Notes: a model not told the origin generated them from the letters alone. Shown: positions 38,788 through 45,802, counted from the first letter of the stretch. The stretch: 64,000 nt of DNA from Patescibacteria group bacterium (GCA_049325535.1 JBMOKY010000001.1:29002-93001); one strand, 5' to 3'. Numbers and translations: made by a program.

Positions 38788-39557
38788 GTAGTTTTCGTAC
38801 CACCGCTGTCCGCGCCGCCCGATCGGCCGGTCATGAATTGATGCGCCATTTTCGCCATCTCACCACTCATCAGGTGAAAAAGAAGGGCCGCCATGATTTG
38901 GTCACCGAGGCGGATATGGCCGCGAACCGGGCTATCATTCGTACTATTCGGCGCCAATTTCCCGATCATGATTTCTTGAGTGAGGAGACCGGACTCGAGG
39001 ACAATCCTGGTGCATACCGTTGGACGATCGATCCGCTCGATGGCACGATGAATTTTGCTTTGCAATCCCCTCTTTTTTGCACTGCTATCGCCCTGCTGCA
39101 TGGGACCGAAATACGCCTCGGCGTGATTTATGCACCGTATATGAAGGAGCTGTATGTCGCCGAGGAAGGTAAAGGAGCCTGGTTAAACGGCATGCGGTTG
39201 CGGGTTTCCACTACTCGCGCGCTGTCTGATACATTGGTCCTCATCGGGCGGACGCACCGACGCCAGTCCCATGAAAATTTCGTGCGCCTGCAGCATCGGT
39301 TGGAGGATCGGGTATTCAACGTGCGCCGACTGGGGAGCGGATCTCTGGAGCTGGCCTATACGGCAGCAGGCCGGAGCGATGCCACCATCTTTACCCCTCC
39401 GGGCGTCAGTTTGTGGGATGCGCCGGCTGGGGTGCTGCTGGTACAGGAGGCGGGCGGTACGGTCACTGGATTTCATAATAAACCCTGGACGGCGCGCAGT
39501 ACCGGCCTCGTAGCTTCAAATGGCCACATTCACCGTTCATTGATTCGGGCACTGTGA
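38784..39557 (+). CDS. suhB: Inositol monophosphatase family protein
   Basis: DPLDGTMNF and WDAPAGVLLVQEAGG motifs. Confidence 0.8.
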   Translation: MSSFRTTAVRAARSAGHELMRHFRHLTTHQVKKKGRHDLVTEADMAANRAIIRTIRRQFPDHDFLSEETGLEDNPGAYRWTIDPLDGTMNFALQSPLFCTAIALLHGTEIRLGVIYAPYMKELYVAEEGKGAWLNGMRLRVSTTRALSDTLVLIGRTHRRQSHENFVRLQHRLEDRVFNVRRLGSGSLELAYTAAGRSDATIFTPPGVSLWDAPAGVLLVQEAGGTVTGFHNKPWTARSTGLVASNGHIHRSLIRAL

Positions 39558-39961
39558 TGCGGCTGATCACGATTTCGGGTACCGTCATATCCGGAGAACA
39601 GATTGGCGAACGCCAGGGGTATCCCACGGCAAATTTTAGCCGTCATGTATTGCGGCGGTCGGGCTTAGGCAATGGTATCTATATTGCCAGCATTACTATT
39701 GGTACCCGGTGGTATCGTGCCGTGGCGGTCATTGGAGTGCCTGGGGTACGCGTGCAGCGGCGGGGAAAAGTTGAGCTGTATATCATTGATTACCCGCGAC
39801 GGGAGCTCTATGGTCGACGGCTGCAATTCGTGGTGTATAAAAAAATTCGTCCGATTCGCCGGTATCGCCAATCGGCCGACCTGATGGCGCGTATTCGGGC
39901 GGATATCCGAGCGGCACGAAAATTTCACTATCCCTCACGCGCTACTCGGGGAAATATTTGA
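39554..39961 (+). CDS. Riboflavin kinase-like domain protein (flavokinase domain only)
   Basis: GTVISGEQIGERQGYPTANF resembles the RibF C-terminal flavokinase domain. No FAD-synthetase domain is present. Confidence 0.65.
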   Translation: MMRLITISGTVISGEQIGERQGYPTANFSRHVLRRSGLGNGIYIASITIGTRWYRAVAVIGVPGVRVQRRGKVELYIIDYPRRELYGRRLQFVVYKKIRPIRRYRQSADLMARIRADIRAARKFHYPSRATRGNI

Positions 39962-42281
39962 TCGGCCACTGTCGAAAGTCGCTGACGTACTGCAGGTCGC
40001 TGATTTTTATTTTTCCGATGTAGAGCTTCTTAAGCGTATCTTCCCCTTGCTCTTTGACCAGGCGCTCTATGATTTGGTTACCGGTAAAATAAACCGCATC
40101 TTTCGTAAATGCTCCGGGGACTCCGGTATCACTGAGCCCTCGCTTTACCCGCACACAGGTACGCCAGGCGCGATCGGGGGCAAGGCCGTAGACATCGACC
40201 ATCTGGTGGTAGAGATCGACGAAGGAGAGCTGCATGCCGAGATAAATGGCAATCACATTGTGCGCTGGTGTAAAAAATTTATCACCCAGGCTGACATGCA
40301 GCCGGTTTTGGTTGTAGATTGCCAGTCCTTCCTCAATCGTCAGATAGCCGGCAGTACCCTGTTCGAAAATGCGGTATTTCTGGAGCCGGCCGTTTTCCAG
40401 CCGGAAGATATGCGTCTCCACTTCATGGGCAATCAGGGCCTTGAGGCGGTTGATGCTAATGCGAGCGTTTTTATCGACGATGATGGTATTATTTTTTGTA
40501 ACCTGCATCCCAGCCGTGGCATCGGGTGATAGTTTAATTTTCCATTTGGTCAGTTTTTTTTCTAGCAAGTAGTTTTCCACCCGTTTGATGACGTCCTCAA
40601 TTTTCAGTATCTTACTGGAGTCAGCGACCATCGGTGTCTGTTTGACGAAGGTGAGCGCATCGCGGTATTGGCGCTCAGTCACCGTACCATACACCGCAGC
40701 AGAGCGTGTGGTCAGATCAGTTTCATCTACTCCTTCAGCAAGCTTCAGTTTATTGGTAATTTCGGTGATTTTATCCAGAAATAGCGGCATCAGCGGGTGA
40801 TCCACCTGGCGAGGGATCTTTTTCAGTTCGGTGCGCAGTGCCGCGAGCTGGTCGGTCGGTACGGTGTAGTTGAATTGCGGCGATACCGTCGGATGTTCCA
40901 TGAATCGCCGGTACTCTTCCTCGGTATTGGTTGGTTTGATTCGGGCTAGCAAATGAATCTGTTCATTGATCCGAGCCAGCCGCTGGTCAATGTTATAGAT
41001 AATTTTTTCAGCGATTGGCGTTGAGGCGCCTGGTGTGACGTTTGGTTTAGCGGCGGTTTGCCGCGTTGCATCGATCAGGAATTCCGTCAGAAATTTTCCC
41101 GACAGGATGAGCTGGTGTTTGGCATGTTCGATGGGCGCCTGGCGGAACGGCAGGCGAAGTTTTTTATCCTTAATACTGATATTCAGCAGTTTGGTATCGG
41201 GCGGAACCGCTATAGTTGATGACAGGACATTATGTTCGCTATGGGGGTCGATTTTCGCGCTGAGTGTGGTGATCCCGGGCAGATTGAGGACGTGGATTAA
41301 TTCATATAAACCGACGATTGGTTTGCTGGCCGGTTTGCTCGTTACTGGATTTTTTTCGGCAAGCACGCGGGTAAAAAGTGTCTGGCCGAGGCGCACTCCC
41401 TCACTGGGAGAGGCAACCTTGAGGTCCGCCACTTTTTCCAGGCGTTTGCGAAGCAGCGCTTGGTTTGATATTTGGATAGCCAATCCGGCTCGCGCATTCA
41501 GCTCCAATATTTTGATACCGGCGTTGGTCAGGGCAAGGTCAACGGCCAGATAGCCGATCTGGGTGTAGTACTGGGTTTTAGCCGCCGTCTGTAGGATCTC
41601 CTGCCATTGGGGCATGATAATTTTACGCACCAGATCACCGCCGGGTAGTTTGCGAATAAGCCGGTTTCCCTGGACGCCATAGGTCCCCCGCCCAGTCCCC
41701 AGGTCGATGCCCACGCCGATAGCTCCGAGGTGGAGGTTTGCTTTGCCGCTGGAGGCCGGGGTGGGAAGCCGGAGCATGGCGATGACCGGAACGTATTTGA
41801 ATATAATCACTCGAATATCCGGCAGCCCGGTCGAGCCGAGTGAGCGGAAATAATCGTGCGGTTCCAGTAATTCCTCAAAAAGAACCGTGTCGCCCAAACC
41901 GGAAATCGCATAGCGGCCGTCGAGGATGCTCAGGCTGTGCTCGTATAAATCAGCCCAGCGGTACTCTTTGCCGCCGGCGTCGGTATAGGTACCGTTCTTG
42001 GTATCCTGAACGGCGATGATGCCTTCGCCGCCGTATCCTTTGTTTGGTTTGATGACGAACCGCCGCGGTAGCCGGTCTGGTTTGAATGCGTGCAGCTCAG
42101 CGGAGCTGGAGATCTGGGCAAATAATTTTGCGACGCCGATCCCCCGCGCGTGGAGGAATCGCTTGGTATATAATTTGTCATCGGCAAGACGGCGGTTTTT
42201 TCGGGAATTGAAACGGGATACGTAGAGAAGGTTGCGGGCATTGATGCCCAATATTCCCGATACTTTGGCAAATACAGACAT
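39942..42281 (-). CDS. Fusion protein with an N-terminal RimK-like ATP-grasp ('alpha-L-glutamate ligase-related') domain and a C-terminal QEGLA-motif/DUF1704 domain
   Basis: N-terminal half has ATP-grasp features (FVIKPNKGYGGEGI, LAVDLALTNAGIKILELNARAGL). C-terminal half has ALIAHEVETHIFRLENG...TIEEGLAIY, i.e. the HExxH-like/QEGLA signature of the 'flavohemoglobin expression-modulating QEGLA motif' family. 779 aa. Confidence 0.7.
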   Translation of the reverse strand: MSVFAKVSGILGINARNLLYVSRFNSRKNRRLADDKLYTKRFLHARGIGVAKLFAQISSSAELHAFKPDRLPRRFVIKPNKGYGGEGIIAVQDTKNGTYTDAGGKEYRWADLYEHSLSILDGRYAISGLGDTVLFEELLEPHDYFRSLGSTGLPDIRVIIFKYVPVIAMLRLPTPASSGKANLHLGAIGVGIDLGTGRGTYGVQGNRLIRKLPGGDLVRKIIMPQWQEILQTAAKTQYYTQIGYLAVDLALTNAGIKILELNARAGLAIQISNQALLRKRLEKVADLKVASPSEGVRLGQTLFTRVLAEKNPVTSKPASKPIVGLYELIHVLNLPGITTLSAKIDPHSEHNVLSSTIAVPPDTKLLNISIKDKKLRLPFRQAPIEHAKHQLILSGKFLTEFLIDATRQTAAKPNVTPGASTPIAEKIIYNIDQRLARINEQIHLLARIKPTNTEEEYRRFMEHPTVSPQFNYTVPTDQLAALRTELKKIPRQVDHPLMPLFLDKITEITNKLKLAEGVDETDLTTRSAAVYGTVTERQYRDALTFVKQTPMVADSSKILKIEDVIKRVENYLLEKKLTKWKIKLSPDATAGMQVTKNNTIIVDKNARISINRLKALIAHEVETHIFRLENGRLQKYRIFEQGTAGYLTIEEGLAIYNQNRLHVSLGDKFFTPAHNVIAIYLGMQLSFVDLYHQMVDVYGLAPDRAWRTCVRVKRGLSDTGVPGAFTKDAVYFTGNQIIERLVKEQGEDTLKKLYIGKIKISDLQYVSDFRQWPIKYFPE

Positions 42282-42290
42282 ACGGTAGGG

Positions 42291-43847
42291 TTATTCCTCT
42301 TCTTCGATATCTTTTTCTTTAAATAGACTACGGAATCGTGCGTATTCCGTCCATCGCAAACCAGTGAATTTACCCAGCAGCACCATGCCAGCTAGTGGCA
42401 CGATAATCAATTCTGGCCATGATAGTACCAGATTGGTAAATGAGTCCCAGACGACGACGTAATAAGCACCAATGGATACCACCACCGTGGTAAACACTCC
42501 AAACAGCGCGGCACGGAGACCCTCTTCAGATTGGGCGGAAAGGAATTTGTCGGACATGGTGGACATCACCAGCATGGGAAAAATCGCCAGGGAAGCAGCC
42601 AGGGAGATACGGTAGAGCGACAGGATCCAAATCACCGCCAGAAATGATAAGCCGATGCTGGAGAGGATCAGGCTGGTTTTCGGGATGTAGAGCAGTCGGA
42701 ACCGGTTGAGCGCCAGCCGCAGGATGTAGCTGACAGCCACGACCACGATCAGCGTGCCGAGACCGACATAGATGCCTAGGATGAGGAATGATAGGGCAAT
42801 AACCAACGGCGTATAGATACCAAATGCGGTTATGCCGATGACTTGGCGCGCGAAGGTAATCAGAAAAGCAATAAATGGAACGGCGAGTATCAGATAAATC
42901 GTATTGGTGGGGATGCCCCGGGCGATGAAATTGGTGATAGCGTGTGACAGGAAAAAAACGTTTGATTTTTCACTGCGAGCATCGACGATGCGGTATTCGA
43001 TGGCGCGGCCCTCTAGGCTTGGCACCAGTTCCGTATTGTCTTTGGTTTCAAAAATGGGATTCAGTGCCTCGGGTCGGGTGAGAAGGATGAACGTCGGATT
43101 GATTACCCGGAATGACTGCTGTGCCAGATCCGCGGCGATGGACATGTTTTGTTCGGTGATGACAACTAGGAGTTTGCTTTGCAGGTTTATTTTTTTGCCC
43201 GTGTCCAGATTTTGCCAGTATCGCGTAAAAGACTGGAGTCCGGCAGCGGCATTGGTATAGAACAAGAGTCCATCCGCTTCGCGAATGAAATCCGCTTCCT
43301 GCGCGACCAGCGGCAGCAATTTTTCTTCGGTCAGGAAACCAGTGTCACCAGTTGGGGCAGTGAGGATTTTTAAGTACACTCCATTATTTGCCGCTTGTTC
43401 GACGATAGCATCCAGGTCCTGGACGATTTCCTGATCGGCAATCATCAGCAGTTTCGTGTCAAAGACAAATACTTCTTTTTCGCTGGTAACCACGGCGCCC
43501 CCCTGGGTGATGGTGAGTGTCACTTTATGGATGCCGGTGGCCGTGAATTCGTAGAGCAATTCCTGCCCAAATCGGGCTACCGGGCTGTCGGAAAAATCCC
43601 AACGGTATGATGCCTGTTCGTCGGTGGCCAGCTGGGAGTCGGTCGCGTCGAACAGCGCTTTTTTCCCGAATTCGATATAGTTATCCGAGGTAATTCGCGG
43701 GACGATCGTTCCCGGTTCAGCCGTCGGCTCTTCATTGGTGGGCGCGGGTGTGGTAATCGGAGTAATTTCTTCGGATTGCGCGTGCGTGTCCGACGCCGTG
43801 ATGGTCAGGCAGGTGAGGAGAATGCCGATAAGGAGTATTTTTTTCAT
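42291..43847 (-). CDS. Signal-peptide plus multi-TM protein of the '7TM domain fused to inactive transglutaminase' type
   Basis: Signal peptide MKKILLIGILLTCLTITASDTHA, an extracytoplasmic domain of about 330 aa, and 6-7 C-terminal TM helices. Conserved context between two ATP-grasp genes. The start overlaps the upstream gene by 4 nt (ATGA). Confidence 0.6.
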   Translation of the reverse strand: MKKILLIGILLTCLTITASDTHAQSEEITPITTPAPTNEEPTAEPGTIVPRITSDNYIEFGKKALFDATDSQLATDEQASYRWDFSDSPVARFGQELLYEFTATGIHKVTLTITQGGAVVTSEKEVFVFDTKLLMIADQEIVQDLDAIVEQAANNGVYLKILTAPTGDTGFLTEEKLLPLVAQEADFIREADGLLFYTNAAAGLQSFTRYWQNLDTGKKINLQSKLLVVITEQNMSIAADLAQQSFRVINPTFILLTRPEALNPIFETKDNTELVPSLEGRAIEYRIVDARSEKSNVFFLSHAITNFIARGIPTNTIYLILAVPFIAFLITFARQVIGITAFGIYTPLVIALSFLILGIYVGLGTLIVVVAVSYILRLALNRFRLLYIPKTSLILSSIGLSFLAVIWILSLYRISLAASLAIFPMLVMSTMSDKFLSAQSEEGLRAALFGVFTTVVVSIGAYYVVVWDSFTNLVLSWPELIIVPLAGMVLLGKFTGLRWTEYARFRSLFKEKDIEEEE

Positions 43848-44782
43848 ACTGCGTTTATGAATGTTTTGATGAGTCCGTGGTGAAATTCGCGGTAATGCAT
43901 ACACCAATGTTTGTATGGTAATCCCGGTTCGGGGTTTATTTCAAAAATATACGGCTTCCCCCGTTCAAATCCCATGTCGACGGCATAGATGCGGTTGCCA
44001 TACCGCTTCAGCCGGTTATCGATGCTGTGTACTAGCTGTTTGGCGCGTCGGGGGATGCGGGCAAGCGGTACTTGCCGGGCACGGGCGCCCTGGGCGACAT
44101 TGGCCACCATGAGGTGGGCGGGCGGGATACGGATAAACGATTGAACGATTGTGCCATCCATGACGGTGACGCGGAGGTCGTGACGTCCCCGATAGAGTCC
44201 TGGAATGCCGCCAGTCGTATCCACAAAGGTCTGTATCAGCCCGGGAAATTCCTTCACGGTACGCCGTATTTTTTCAGCACTGCCAATGATTACTCCGGTA
44301 CCGCCGGTACCATGAAGCGGTTTGTACACTATTTGATCGGTCGCTACCTTAGCGATTGCCGCCCTGAGTTGTTTTTTGTTCAGCACGCGGTAGGTCGGTT
44401 TCATGTAGCGATGGAAGGCCCGGTAGGTACCGTATTTATCATAGGTCAGCTGATAGAGCTTCCAGGGATTGACGACTGCCCAATCACGTCCGCCATTGCT
44501 CCGGAGTCGGTTTTTATTGTACACCACGCGGGCCGCGATGGGGCCATGATGCCCGACTAATGTACCGGTTTGGTAATGATAACCTCCTGAAAAGTTACCG
44601 TTGCCAATGTGGCGCTCCGCGCCGCGGACGTAGTAGACGGAAAAATGGGCTGATGCGGTTTTGAAAAAATCGAAATACGATTCTCTCCAGTGCGGTACGG
44701 TAAATGGATAGGAGCGAACCGTCCCGGATGGATGCAGAACGACGAGATTTGGTTTTCCATCGGTGAAGCGAGATGTATTCAT
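43844..44782 (-). CDS. Stand-alone ATP-grasp-fold ligase (RimK-like)
   Basis: KPLHGTGGTGVII and C-terminal IFEINPEPG are ATP-grasp features. First gene of the three-gene operon. Confidence 0.55.
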   Translation of the reverse strand: MNTSRFTDGKPNLVVLHPSGTVRSYPFTVPHWRESYFDFFKTASAHFSVYYVRGAERHIGNGNFSGGYHYQTGTLVGHHGPIAARVVYNKNRLRSNGGRDWAVVNPWKLYQLTYDKYGTYRAFHRYMKPTYRVLNKKQLRAAIAKVATDQIVYKPLHGTGGTGVIIGSAEKIRRTVKEFPGLIQTFVDTTGGIPGLYRGRHDLRVTVMDGTIVQSFIRIPPAHLMVANVAQGARARQVPLARIPRRAKQLVHSIDNRLKRYGNRIYAVDMGFERGKPYIFEINPEPGLPYKHWCMHYREFHHGLIKTFINAV

Positions 44783-44808: not shown

Positions 44809-44895
44809 TGGTGCCGCCGGTCGGACTCGAACCGACACGGGATTGCTCCCAAAGGATTTTAAGTCCTTCGTGTATACCAATTTCACCACGGCGGC
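44809..44895 (-). tRNA. tRNA-Leu (anticodon TAA), long variable arm
   Basis: Reverse complement GCCGCCGTGGTGAAATTGGTATACACGAAGGACTTAAAATCCTTTGGGAGCAATCCCGTGTCGGTTCGAGTCCGACCGGCGGCACCA. Confidence 0.7.
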
Positions 44896-44905
44896 ATGAA
44901 ACTTA

Positions 44906-45364
44906 TTATGGCTTGATACTGTGAAAGAGGACGATGCCGGCAGCAATGCCGACGTTTAAGGATTCCTTCTTTCCGTGCATCGGTATTTCGATAATCTGAT
45001 CGCAGATATTGAGCAGTCGCTTGGGCAGTCCCGTTATTTCAGCGCCGAGCACATAGGCTCGTTTGCGTTTCAATCGGACCGAGGAGTATGGTTTGCTCAT
45101 GGATGACTGTTCAAGCGCCACCAGCTGGTAGCCAGTGGCTTTGAGGGCATCAAGCGCTCGTTTGGTCTGATGGCAATAGGTGAAGGTCACTGTTTTTTCC
45201 GCGCCGAGGGCAACTTTGTCAATTTTCGGGTGCGGCGGTTGTGGGGTAATACCGCAAAGAATAATCCGTTTGACCCCGGCCGCATCTGCGGTACGAAAAA
45301 TAGCGCCTACATTGAAACGGCTACGGATGTTATAGAGGACCAATACGATGTCATGTTCAGGCAT
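44906..45364 (-). CDS. SpoU/TrmH-family RNA 2'-O-methyltransferase (TrmL-like, short form)
   Basis: SPOUT-fold motifs (VLYNIRSRFNVGAIFRTADAAGV, LGAEITG, ESLNVGIAAGIVLF). Confidence 0.8.
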   Translation of the reverse strand: MPEHDIVLVLYNIRSRFNVGAIFRTADAAGVKRIILCGITPQPPHPKIDKVALGAEKTVTFTYCHQTKRALDALKATGYQLVALEQSSMSKPYSSVRLKRKRAYVLGAEITGLPKRLLNICDQIIEIPMHGKKESLNVGIAAGIVLFHSIKP

Positions 45365-45380
45365 GGAAACGGATGATGGG

Positions 45381-45457
45381 CTGGAGCGGCAGACCGGACT
45401 TGAACCGGCGACCTTCTCCTTGGCAAGGAGACGTTCTAGCCAACTGAACTACTGCCG
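45381..45457 (-). tRNA. tRNA-Gly (anticodon GCC)
   Basis: Reverse complement GCGGCAGTAGTTCAGTTGGCTAGAACGTCTCCTTGCCAAGGAGAAGGTCGCCGGTTCAAGTCCGGTCTGCCGCTCCA. Confidence 0.7.
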
Positions 45458-45728
45458 CGTGATTGTCGAAAACCCCTTTTGAAAGTGGTTTTGGATACTT
45501 TCCGCAAAGATTTGTATCGTTCACCCGACATAAAGTCGAGGTTCACGATGCTTCATTATTTTCCTCACCTGCCCATGGGCAGGTTCGGAGCAATGATGAG
45601 AGTAAAAGCGCACCGTACCGAAGTGGAGGCCACGGGCGTCCCGTCCTTCGACAAGCTCATGACGGAATCTCCGCTGCGCTCCGAGAATCGAATCTCGCTT
45701 GGATTGTATTTCTCATAATTTTTCCTAA

Positions 45729-45802
<74 letters not shown>

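Follow-up and report, generated by a model that had tools for sequence, protein, structure and literature searches.

A ligase-carboxypeptidase fusion and its Glu-ending membrane partner in Patescibacteria: a candidate writer and eraser of C-terminal acidic tails

What reaction is served by a bacterial enzyme that joins an ATP-grasp ligase to a carboxypeptidase in one polypeptide, and on which acceptor does it act? The question is raised by three minus-strand open reading frames (ORFs), here ORF1, ORF2 and ORF3, at positions 39942-44782 of a 64,000-nucleotide stretch of DNA from a Patescibacteria group bacterium (GCA_049325535.1, JBMOKY010000001.1:29002-93001; hereafter the window, with positions counted from its first letter). 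A sequence-only reading of the window had described three such genes with an ATGA overlap and proposed an amidoligase or peptide-tail system. ORF calling confirmed the genes, their coordinates and the overlap (Table 1), and the general idea is consistent with the evidence presented below. Tentatively, and with a confidence somewhat short of even, we read the locus as a membrane-docked writer and eraser of C-terminal acidic tails, in which the -EE tail of ORF2 is the likely acceptor and ORF1 an auxiliary ligase.

The N-terminal domain of ORF3 is an RloC-type ligase. It matches Pfam ATPgrasp_ST at 2.6e-54 (184.7 bits, over the cutoff of 31.4) and TIGR02291 at E=2.3e-72 across amino acids (aa) 7-304, the latter with 243.7 bits, under the curated cutoff of 314.2; the RimK family model TIGR00768 gives 22.2 bits, under its cutoff of 143.4. 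Residues K78, E136, D248, E260 and N262 are unchanged in every sequence of an alignment of 80. The nearest solved ATP-grasp structures are ArgX and LysX (on LysW) and RimK (on S6), all of which modify a protein C-terminal Glu, and Ddl-type structures score below these protein C-terminus ligases. The LysW on which LysX and ArgX act is a small soluble carrier of a biosynthetic pathway, loaded at the gamma-carboxyl of its C-terminal Glu; unlike that arrangement, the present locus holds no biosynthetic genes and the partner is a seven-transmembrane (7TM) protein. RimK lengthens S6 at its -EE end and produces poly-alpha-Glu (PMC11957791).

The C-terminal domain of ORF3 belongs to the MATCAP (formerly DUF1704, PF08014) family, whose model matches at 1.1e-36, over the gathering score, and the predicted fold confirmed the assignment; the QEGLA model TIGR02421 also matches, at 2e-40 (both at aa 432-768). 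The full-length QEGLA cutoff was missed (139.2 bits vs 338.65), and ORF3 reads EEGLA, not QEGLA. MATCAP and TMCP proteins are carboxypeptidases that take Tyr or Glu off acidic tails of tubulin, and their metal and catalytic site is formed by HExxxH and the Glu of an EEG motif (PMC10499314). Of 80 aligned relatives of ORF3, at least 77 retain HExxxH and 79 have EEG or QEG. The fusion of ATP-grasp to QEGLA/DUF1704, as first read from the sequence, is thus borne out by profile searches in which both models match the 779-aa protein, and a look for inactivating substitutions in the alignments found the ligase catalytic residues of both ORF1 and ORF3 intact. The two-module description was nevertheless incomplete, as it overlooked a middle domain, recognised as a retropepsin fold by the AlphaFold2 (AF2) model of ORF3 and structure comparison, in which DPH replaces the catalytic DTG. 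RimB and RloA, both retropepsin homologues, cleave poly-Glu (PMC12239564, PMC11957791). The degenerate domain of ORF3 has probably been retained to bind or scaffold an acidic chain. Database names for the fusion extend only to 'DUF1704 / tyrosine/phenylalanine carboxypeptidase domain-containing protein'.

ORF2 had been taken for a 7TM-transglutaminase-like protein, of which the signal peptide and the 7TM module (PF14402, RloB-homologous) stand and the transglutaminase ectodomain does not. Pfam 7TM_transglut (PF14402) matches at 1.7e-28 over aa 314-508, and the hhalign match to Legionella RloB (99.4%, E=5.7e-22) is confined to aa 314-511. Neither the predicted fold nor structure or profile comparison revealed a transglutaminase domain in the ectodomain. 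The 120 listed homologues of ORF2 consist of PKD plus 7TM_transglut or of 7TM_transglut alone, and none of them carries the inactive-transglutaminase Pfam domain; 'transglutaminase-like' is therefore only a family name of the 7TM module. The predicted structure (mean local confidence score, pLDDT, 82) opens with a hydrophobic helix (aa 2-19), after which aa 20-43 form a disordered linker. Lys and Arg residues in 28 sequences of the family cluster at R334, in the loops 377-390 and 433-447 and in the C-terminal tail, and the alternate loops are nearly free of them, so that the positive-inside rule predicts an outer N-terminus, seven transmembrane helices and an inner C-terminus. Structure comparison of the 7TM module gave no match to any solved transporter fold. 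The best-conserved stretches of ORF2 lie outside the ectodomain: they are aa 424-447 (~42507-42578), a predicted cytoplasmic segment reading FPMLVMST.SEKFLSAQSEEG, and aa 496-506, a juxtamembrane GLR..EY.RFR motif. Nearly all of the 150 wider-family representatives listed, basic-tail ones included, have a recognisable version of this motif. Both stretches are candidate docking sites for the ligase.

The cytoplasmic location of the ORF2 tail is predicted by the structural model as well as by the positive-inside rule. The earlier account overlooked that its C-terminal residue is invariant: all 66 ORF2 homologues adjoining fused ORF3 genes in species genomes end in Glu (with E in 56, Q in 8 and N and H in 1 each at the penultimate position), as do 120 of the 120 listed database homologues. 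For comparison, 4.6% of 690 other ORFs from the same loci end in E and 0.4% in EE, and ORF2 is the sole ORF of the window with an EE end. In the wider family, represented by 1,517 cluster representatives from a HMMER scan with the 7TM module (E<=1e-3), C-termini fall in two classes, -EE/-QE ends versus basic tails. As an outgroup, 80 metagenome loci were fetched with basic-tail PKD-7TM proteins of like architecture. Partner tails end in E in 66 of 67 cases with a fused MATCAP versus 4 of 61 without (Fisher p=2.6e-30), an association that is confounded by clade. Two proteobacterial RloB proteins, each paired with a secreted retropepsin, end ...KARS and ...GKDK, not in Glu. Within the fused clade, the comparison of sequences gives strong evidence of selection on the tail; that the tail is also the substrate is suggested by the same invariant Glu in a circumstantial way.

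Table 1. Features of the three-gene locus and its surroundings (window positions)
Feature	Position	Strand	Description
ORF1	43844..44782	(-)	312 aa, stand-alone RimK/GshB-type ATP-grasp ligase
ORF2	42291..43847	(-)	518 aa, membrane partner: signal peptide, PKD, alpha/beta ectodomain, 7TM, acidic tail
ORF2 signal peptide	43779..43847	(-)	MKKILLIGILLTCLTITASDTHA; cleavage site inferred by eye
PKD domain, extracytoplasmic	43473..43697	(-)	aa 51-125; Pfam PKD_4 1.6e-10
Flavodoxin/CheY-like alpha/beta ectodomain	42978..43457	(-)	aa 131-290
7TM module	42369..42908	(-)	aa 314-493; homologous to RloB / PF14402 module
Cytoplasmic C-terminal tail of ORF2	42294..42368	(-)	FTGLRWTEYARFRSLFKEKDIEEEE; candidate acceptor or docking tail
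EEEE-COOH end of ORF2 tail	42294-42305	(-)	
ORF2 tail end as candidate acceptor peptide			...SLFKEKDIEEEE; ...RFRSLFKEKDIEEEE
ORF3	39942..42281	(-)	779 aa, cytoplasmic enzyme, three domains
RloC-type ATP-grasp ligase domain	41367..42236	(-)	aa 16-305
Retropepsin-fold (RloA/RimB-like) middle domain	41067..41324	(-)	aa 320-405; DTG -> DPH
KIDPH	41241-41255	(-)	DPH in place of catalytic DTG
MATCAP/DUF1704-type metallocarboxypeptidase domain	39945..41018	(-)	aa 422-779
HEVETH	40410-40427	(-)	aa 619-624
EEG	40326-40334	(-)	aa 650-652
tRNA-Leu(taa)	44809-44895	(-)	
SpoU-like ORF	44906-45364	(-)	152 aa; assigned by eye
tRNA-Gly and tRNA-Cys	45382-45458 and 45728-45799	(-)	
Convergent ORF	39554-39961	(+)	135 aa, GTG start; riboflavin kinase-like by eye

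The outgroup also shows the fusion in its earlier states. There an RloC-type ligase gene directly follows the 7TM gene, and 61 of the 62 complete ligases consist of ligase plus retropepsin (373-510 aa) with an intact D[TS]G, usually within AK[IV]D[TS]GA. One such protein, from locus L154, matches Pfam Zn_protease at 2.1e-9; the gene order at this locus is 7TM-only (218 aa), ligase-retropepsin (464 aa), RimK-like (303 aa) and ORF1-like (314 aa). MATCAP is absent from most outgroup loci with sufficient flank; L101, L108 and L110 have it as a gene of its own a short way downstream, and L092 has it fused, with DTG kept. The three most divergent fused proteins of the genome set likewise keep DTG or DSG. 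Arranged by these sequence features, the loci form a graded series, from ligase-retropepsin through the addition of a MATCAP gene and a triple fusion to decay of the retropepsin motif, with the window at the last stage. The simplest reading of the series is that MATCAP took over hydrolysis of the same product, a takeover that would support its role as the ligase's 'eraser'.

This four-gene module (7TM-only protein of 218-290 aa, DTG-intact ligase-retropepsin, RimK/TTL-like and ORF1-like proteins) was observed at L154:4983-8910 and also on a JGI contig, at L158, at L167 and elsewhere; the succession of three different ATP-grasp ligases suggests that a mixed peptide or chain is built step by step. 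An RloC-type ATP-grasp with 38% identity to aa 6-291 of ORF3 was also noted on a plasmid of Halobacterium sp. DL1 (L086:4809-7316), in an unannotated gap beside transposase genes, possibly as an unannotated or decayed gene. This archaeal copy hints at horizontal spread of the ligase.

ORF1 is, as first described, a stand-alone ATP-grasp protein, matching Pfam GSH-S_ATP at 1.8e-9 (37.7 bits, cutoff 23) and rimK_fam at 1.2e-8, although the RimK family model TIGR00768 stays at 34.7 bits, under its cutoff of 143.4; its best match in the PDB is RimK (7qyr, E=0.27). K154, D269, E281 and N283 are invariant among 18 aligned homologues, so that the ATP-binding Lys and the Mg-binding D/E-x-N are kept. 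The family is small (24 clusters). Homologues lie near the ORF2-ORF3 pair in ~16 of 80 genome loci and in ~16 of 62 outgroup loci; in the closest relatives they are placed upstream on the same strand, in a Magasanikbacteria group one or two divergent copies occur, and once the placement is downstream. ORF1-like genes also adjoin 7TM and ligase pairs that lack MATCAP. By this distribution ORF1 is an optional accessory ligase of the system, and not, as had been thought, a second ATP-grasp added in the present genome. Two other identities were rejected. As a glutathione synthase (GshB), ORF1 reaches 39.9 bits against a cutoff of 272 (NF003573) and 31.1 against 299 (TIGR01380), and BLASTP to the 'glutathione synthase' adjacent to a rhizobial QEGLA gene (L085) gives 24% identity at E=0.002 over the N-terminal part only.

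Although the locus was first taken for an uncharacterised system, the homologous rloABC operon has been studied genetically: in Pseudomonas aeruginosa it is linked to hypo-osmotic stress tolerance, cell shape, biofilm formation and antibiotic tolerance (PMC12239564). As in that operon, a ligase of RloC's subfamily (TIGR02291/ATPgrasp_ST) is present, here as a domain homologue within a larger fusion; the 7TM module is that of RloB, encoded directly upstream of the ligase gene; and a retropepsin-fold module of RloA/RimB type is found in ORF3. There are also differences. The retropepsin of ORF3 is fused to the ligase, cytoplasmic and devoid of DTG, whereas RloA is a secreted active enzyme with a signal peptide; a MATCAP carboxypeptidase and an extra ATP-grasp (ORF1) are added; the ectodomain of ORF2 is PKD plus flavodoxin-like, that of RloB an inactive transglutaminase; and ORF2 ends in Glu, unlike the two RloB proteins examined. 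The NCBIfam RloB model gives 65 bits on ORF2 versus a cutoff of 900, and TIGR02291 on ORF3 is also under cutoff. The locus is thus homologous to rloABC at module level but fails three of its defining features, namely the secreted active RloA, the transglutaminase ectodomain and the model cutoffs.

The RimK/RimB pair and the RimBK hybrids (PMC11957791) resemble ORF3 in that a RimK-like ligase is paired or fused with a retropepsin-like peptidase, which in the Rim system acts on C-terminal poly-alpha-glutamate, and the acceptor S6 ends in Glu-Glu, as ORF2 does. ORF3 differs in its ATP-grasp subfamily (rimK_fam 22 bits vs 143), in domain order, with the protease N-terminal to the ligase in RimBK and C-terminal to it in ORF3, and in having a membrane partner and a MATCAP domain. 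In comparison with the eukaryotic cycle of MATCAP/TMCP1-2 and TTL/TTLL enzymes (PMC10499314), writer and eraser are united in one polypeptide, the ligase is RloC/RimK-like and not of the TTL family, a microtubule-binding region is missing, and the candidate substrate is the tail of a bacterial 7TM protein instead of tubulin. The MATCAP/DUF1704 domain is also common to ORF3 and the proteobacterial QEGLA (TIGR02421) proteins, but these are stand-alone (~450-660 aa, 23-26% identity to ORF3) and, in the four loci examined, have no adjoining 7TM protein or RloC-type ligase. The notion that the three modules are neighbours in Proteobacteria did not hold in the examples examined: in Legionella and Aeromonas the ATP-grasp and the 7TM protein accompany a retropepsin (rloABC), and QEGLA stands alone or beside a GshB-like ligase.

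Several plasmid-borne loci deserve mention here. Plasmid 5 (54 kb) of Legionella adelaidensis carries a complete rloABC-type cluster (L083:3987-9208), with a 152-aa retropepsin (annotated 'RimK/LysX family protein'), a 7TM protein of the inactive-transglutaminase type and an alpha-L-glutamate ligase-like protein; two genes for C1-family cysteine peptidases come directly after the cluster. Plasmid pPspA13a of Pararhizobium sp. A13 (L085:3436-7207) encodes in a row an N-formylglutamate amidohydrolase, a 632-aa QEGLA/MATCAP protein and the GshB-like ATP-grasp ('glutathione synthase') mentioned above; this is a second, independent pairing of MATCAP with ATP-grasp, with a glutamate-related neighbour. 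On megaplasmids of Sinorhizobium and Ensifer, QEGLA matches are frequent (74 records).

Which amino acid is added, to what acceptor, and with what signalling or export role, if any, we infer from these data as follows. The RloC/RimK/LysX-like ATP-grasp of ORF3 would activate the carboxylate at a C-terminus and attach amino acids to it, most likely alpha-linked glutamate, and the MATCAP-like zinc carboxypeptidase of the same protein would take residues back off the C-terminal end. The retropepsin relic between the two may hold or scaffold the acidic chain. ORF3 would partner ORF2, which is predicted to present its PKD and flavodoxin-like domains outside and its Glu-ending tail inside, and the -EE-COOH of that tail would be the likeliest acceptor or primer. 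The length or identity of the tail would then depend on how ligase and carboxypeptidase balance each other, and ORF1, where present, may serve as a second ligase that initiates, elongates or caps.

A number of observations weigh against this proposal. Phylogeny confounds the link between tail and MATCAP, which may go back to a single event or a few. The link also has exceptions in both directions: L092 combines a fused MATCAP with a ...KKHRA tail, the three loci with a separate MATCAP gene have basic tails, and four others (L105, L117, L120, L128) have E-ending tails and no MATCAP. A strict rule by which MATCAP implies an E-ending tail is ruled out by L092 and those three separate-gene loci. 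Basic tails prevail among the outgroup 7TM partners, and the tail therefore cannot be the universal acceptor of the ligase family. Sequence tests of the middle domain for retropepsin kinship were insignificant, its assignment resting on predicted structure, and the inter-domain arrangement in the AF2 model of ORF3 is uncertain (predicted template modelling score, pTM, 0.51). Finally, the location of the Pseudomonas peptidase in the periplasm speaks for a product that is exported and not for a tail in the cytoplasm (PMC12239564).

This last point leads to the alternative that survives best, product export on the Rlo model, which we consider unlikely but a serious contender. Here ORF3, helped by ORF1, would make free poly-alpha-glutamate or a short acidic peptide in the cytoplasm, and the 7TM protein ORF2 would export or anchor it; the PKD and alpha/beta ectodomains would handle the product at the surface, the Glu tail would be a docking motif or primer, and MATCAP (retropepsin in relatives) would merely set chain length or recycle the product, which could form a capsule-like layer or serve in osmoprotection or host attachment. 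In P. aeruginosa, loss of the periplasmic RloA peptidases is rescued by deletion of rloB or rloC, as if the RloBC product needed cleavage outside the cytoplasm (PMC12239564), and RimK makes free poly-alpha-Glu under stimulation by RimB (PMC11957791). Of the ligase's partners, moreover, only the 7TM module is conserved universally, whether it carries an ectodomain or not, and the mostly basic outgroup tails are not acceptors of the Glu type. Export nevertheless fits poorly with hydrolase domains that have no signal peptide and are joined to a cytoplasmic ligase, an arrangement that indicates trimming inside the cell; its would-be exporter is unmatched by any solved transporter fold, and the invariant terminal residue of ORF2 in the MATCAP-fused clade is left unexplained.

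It is improbable, in our estimate, that ORF3 instead adds glutamate to a soluble target whose gene lies elsewhere and removes it again, in the manner of RimK on S6, with ORF2 as the membrane sensor that recruits or regulates it. The structural kinship of the ligase to RimK, LysX and ArgX, the precedent of RimABK as a regulated ligase-protease complex (PMC11957791), an ectodomain whose receiver/periplasmic-binding-like fold suits ligand sensing, and the separation of ORF3 from ORF2 in a few Peregrinibacteria loci are all compatible with such a scheme. The operon, however, contains no candidate target gene, the only EE-ending ORF of the window is ORF2 itself, near-universal tight linkage is to the 7TM protein alone, and the RimK family model scores far under its cutoff (22 vs 143 bits). 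Most improbable of all is amidation of glycan or cell wall, with a 'sugar-transfer associated' ATP-grasp loading amino acids on a carboxylated sugar or lipid-linked envelope precursor handled by the 7TM protein and MATCAP trimming the peptide stem: the Pfam name ATPgrasp_ST and the glycosyltransferase-, glycoside-hydrolase- and transporter-like genes found by eye downstream in 11-13 Magasanikbacteria-type loci would suit it, but these neighbours are limited to one lineage and absent from the window, protein C-terminus ligases are the nearest structures while Ddl-type ones score lower, and both hydrolase types are known only as acidic-chain peptidases (PMC10499314, PMC12239564).

The writer and eraser of acidic tails, which we keep as the preferred reading, can be carried further to a reversible 'tail code' on a 7TM receptor, although in this extended form we think it rather unlikely. 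One or two ATP-grasp ligases would lengthen and MATCAP would shorten the ORF2 tail under the control of extracellular PKD/flavodoxin-like sensors, as a prokaryotic counterpart of the tubulin tyrosination/glutamylation cycle and possibly as an evolutionary antecedent of the TTL/TTLL versus MATCAP cycle on tubulin.

The genome is a streamlined one, as the sequence-only reading supposed (Patescibacteria, ~1.15 Mb); the fusion, by contrast, is not special to it. A scan of one genome per species found the ligase-MATCAP fusion encoded in 202 genomes, which makes it a conserved trait of the Candidate Phyla Radiation (CPR) and not an oddity, and full-length ORF3 homologues with 35-70% identity occur in Kerfeld-, Magasanik-, Uhr-, Buchanan-, Peregrini- and Gracilibacteria. 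Of 80 species loci, ~66 have ORF2 as the next gene upstream of ORF3 on the same strand, so the arrangement is not due to chance; the exceptions are mostly contig ends, with a few Peregrinibacteria in which ORF2 is elsewhere. The literature searched on 7TM_transglut, QEGLA, DUF1704 and ATP-grasp in Patescibacteria yielded no account of the ORF3 fusion; as far as that literature goes, the CPR fusion system is widespread but undescribed. Twelve Magasanikbacteria-type loci have four genes in conserved order after ORF3 (~8.4-14 kb, locus coordinates), by eye a glycosyltransferase, a multi-pass membrane protein, a glycoside hydrolase and a permease, an order that could stem from synteny within the lineage or from a functional tie with envelope glycans. 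Thirteen loci of the set come from third-party annotation (TPA) metagenome-assembled genomes titled 'uncultured Gammaproteobacteria bacterium'; they hold the CPR-type operon with 44-58% identity in Patescibacteria gene order, and their label is probably a placeholder or error.

The layout of the locus itself is compact. For ORF2 the start codons at 43907 and 43847 are both possible, and the ATG at 43847 is preferred because of the ATGA overlap with the ORF1 stop and an MKK start common to homologues. A spacer of 9 nucleotides (nt) separates ORF2 from ORF3, both in one frame. Upstream of ORF1, a tRNA-Leu gene lies 26 nt from the start codon in place of a promoter-sized spacer, so that the operon may share a transcript with tRNA genes and have no promoter of its own. 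Scans for promoters and terminators at the locus gave signals no better than background. Further upstream, the minus strand carries the SpoU-like ORF and two more tRNA genes. On the other side, a convergent ORF closes the unit; it shares the last 20 nt of ORF3, which leaves no space for a terminator between them.

The locus thus presents a ligase, a degenerate endopeptidase and a carboxypeptidase in one polypeptide, paired with a Glu-ending membrane protein. The fusion provides RloBC-type systems with a candidate substrate that can be tested as a peptide; if the 'tail code' were true, it would be the first identified substrate of the Rlo-type ligase family. Bacterial MATCAP/DUF1704 proteins gain a functional context: they are found repeatedly beside ATP-grasp ligases or joined to them, which suggests prokaryotic roots for the combination of tail ligases and MATCAP seen in eukaryotes. 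For the CPR bacteria, a conserved, envelope-linked system is added to a small gene repertoire.

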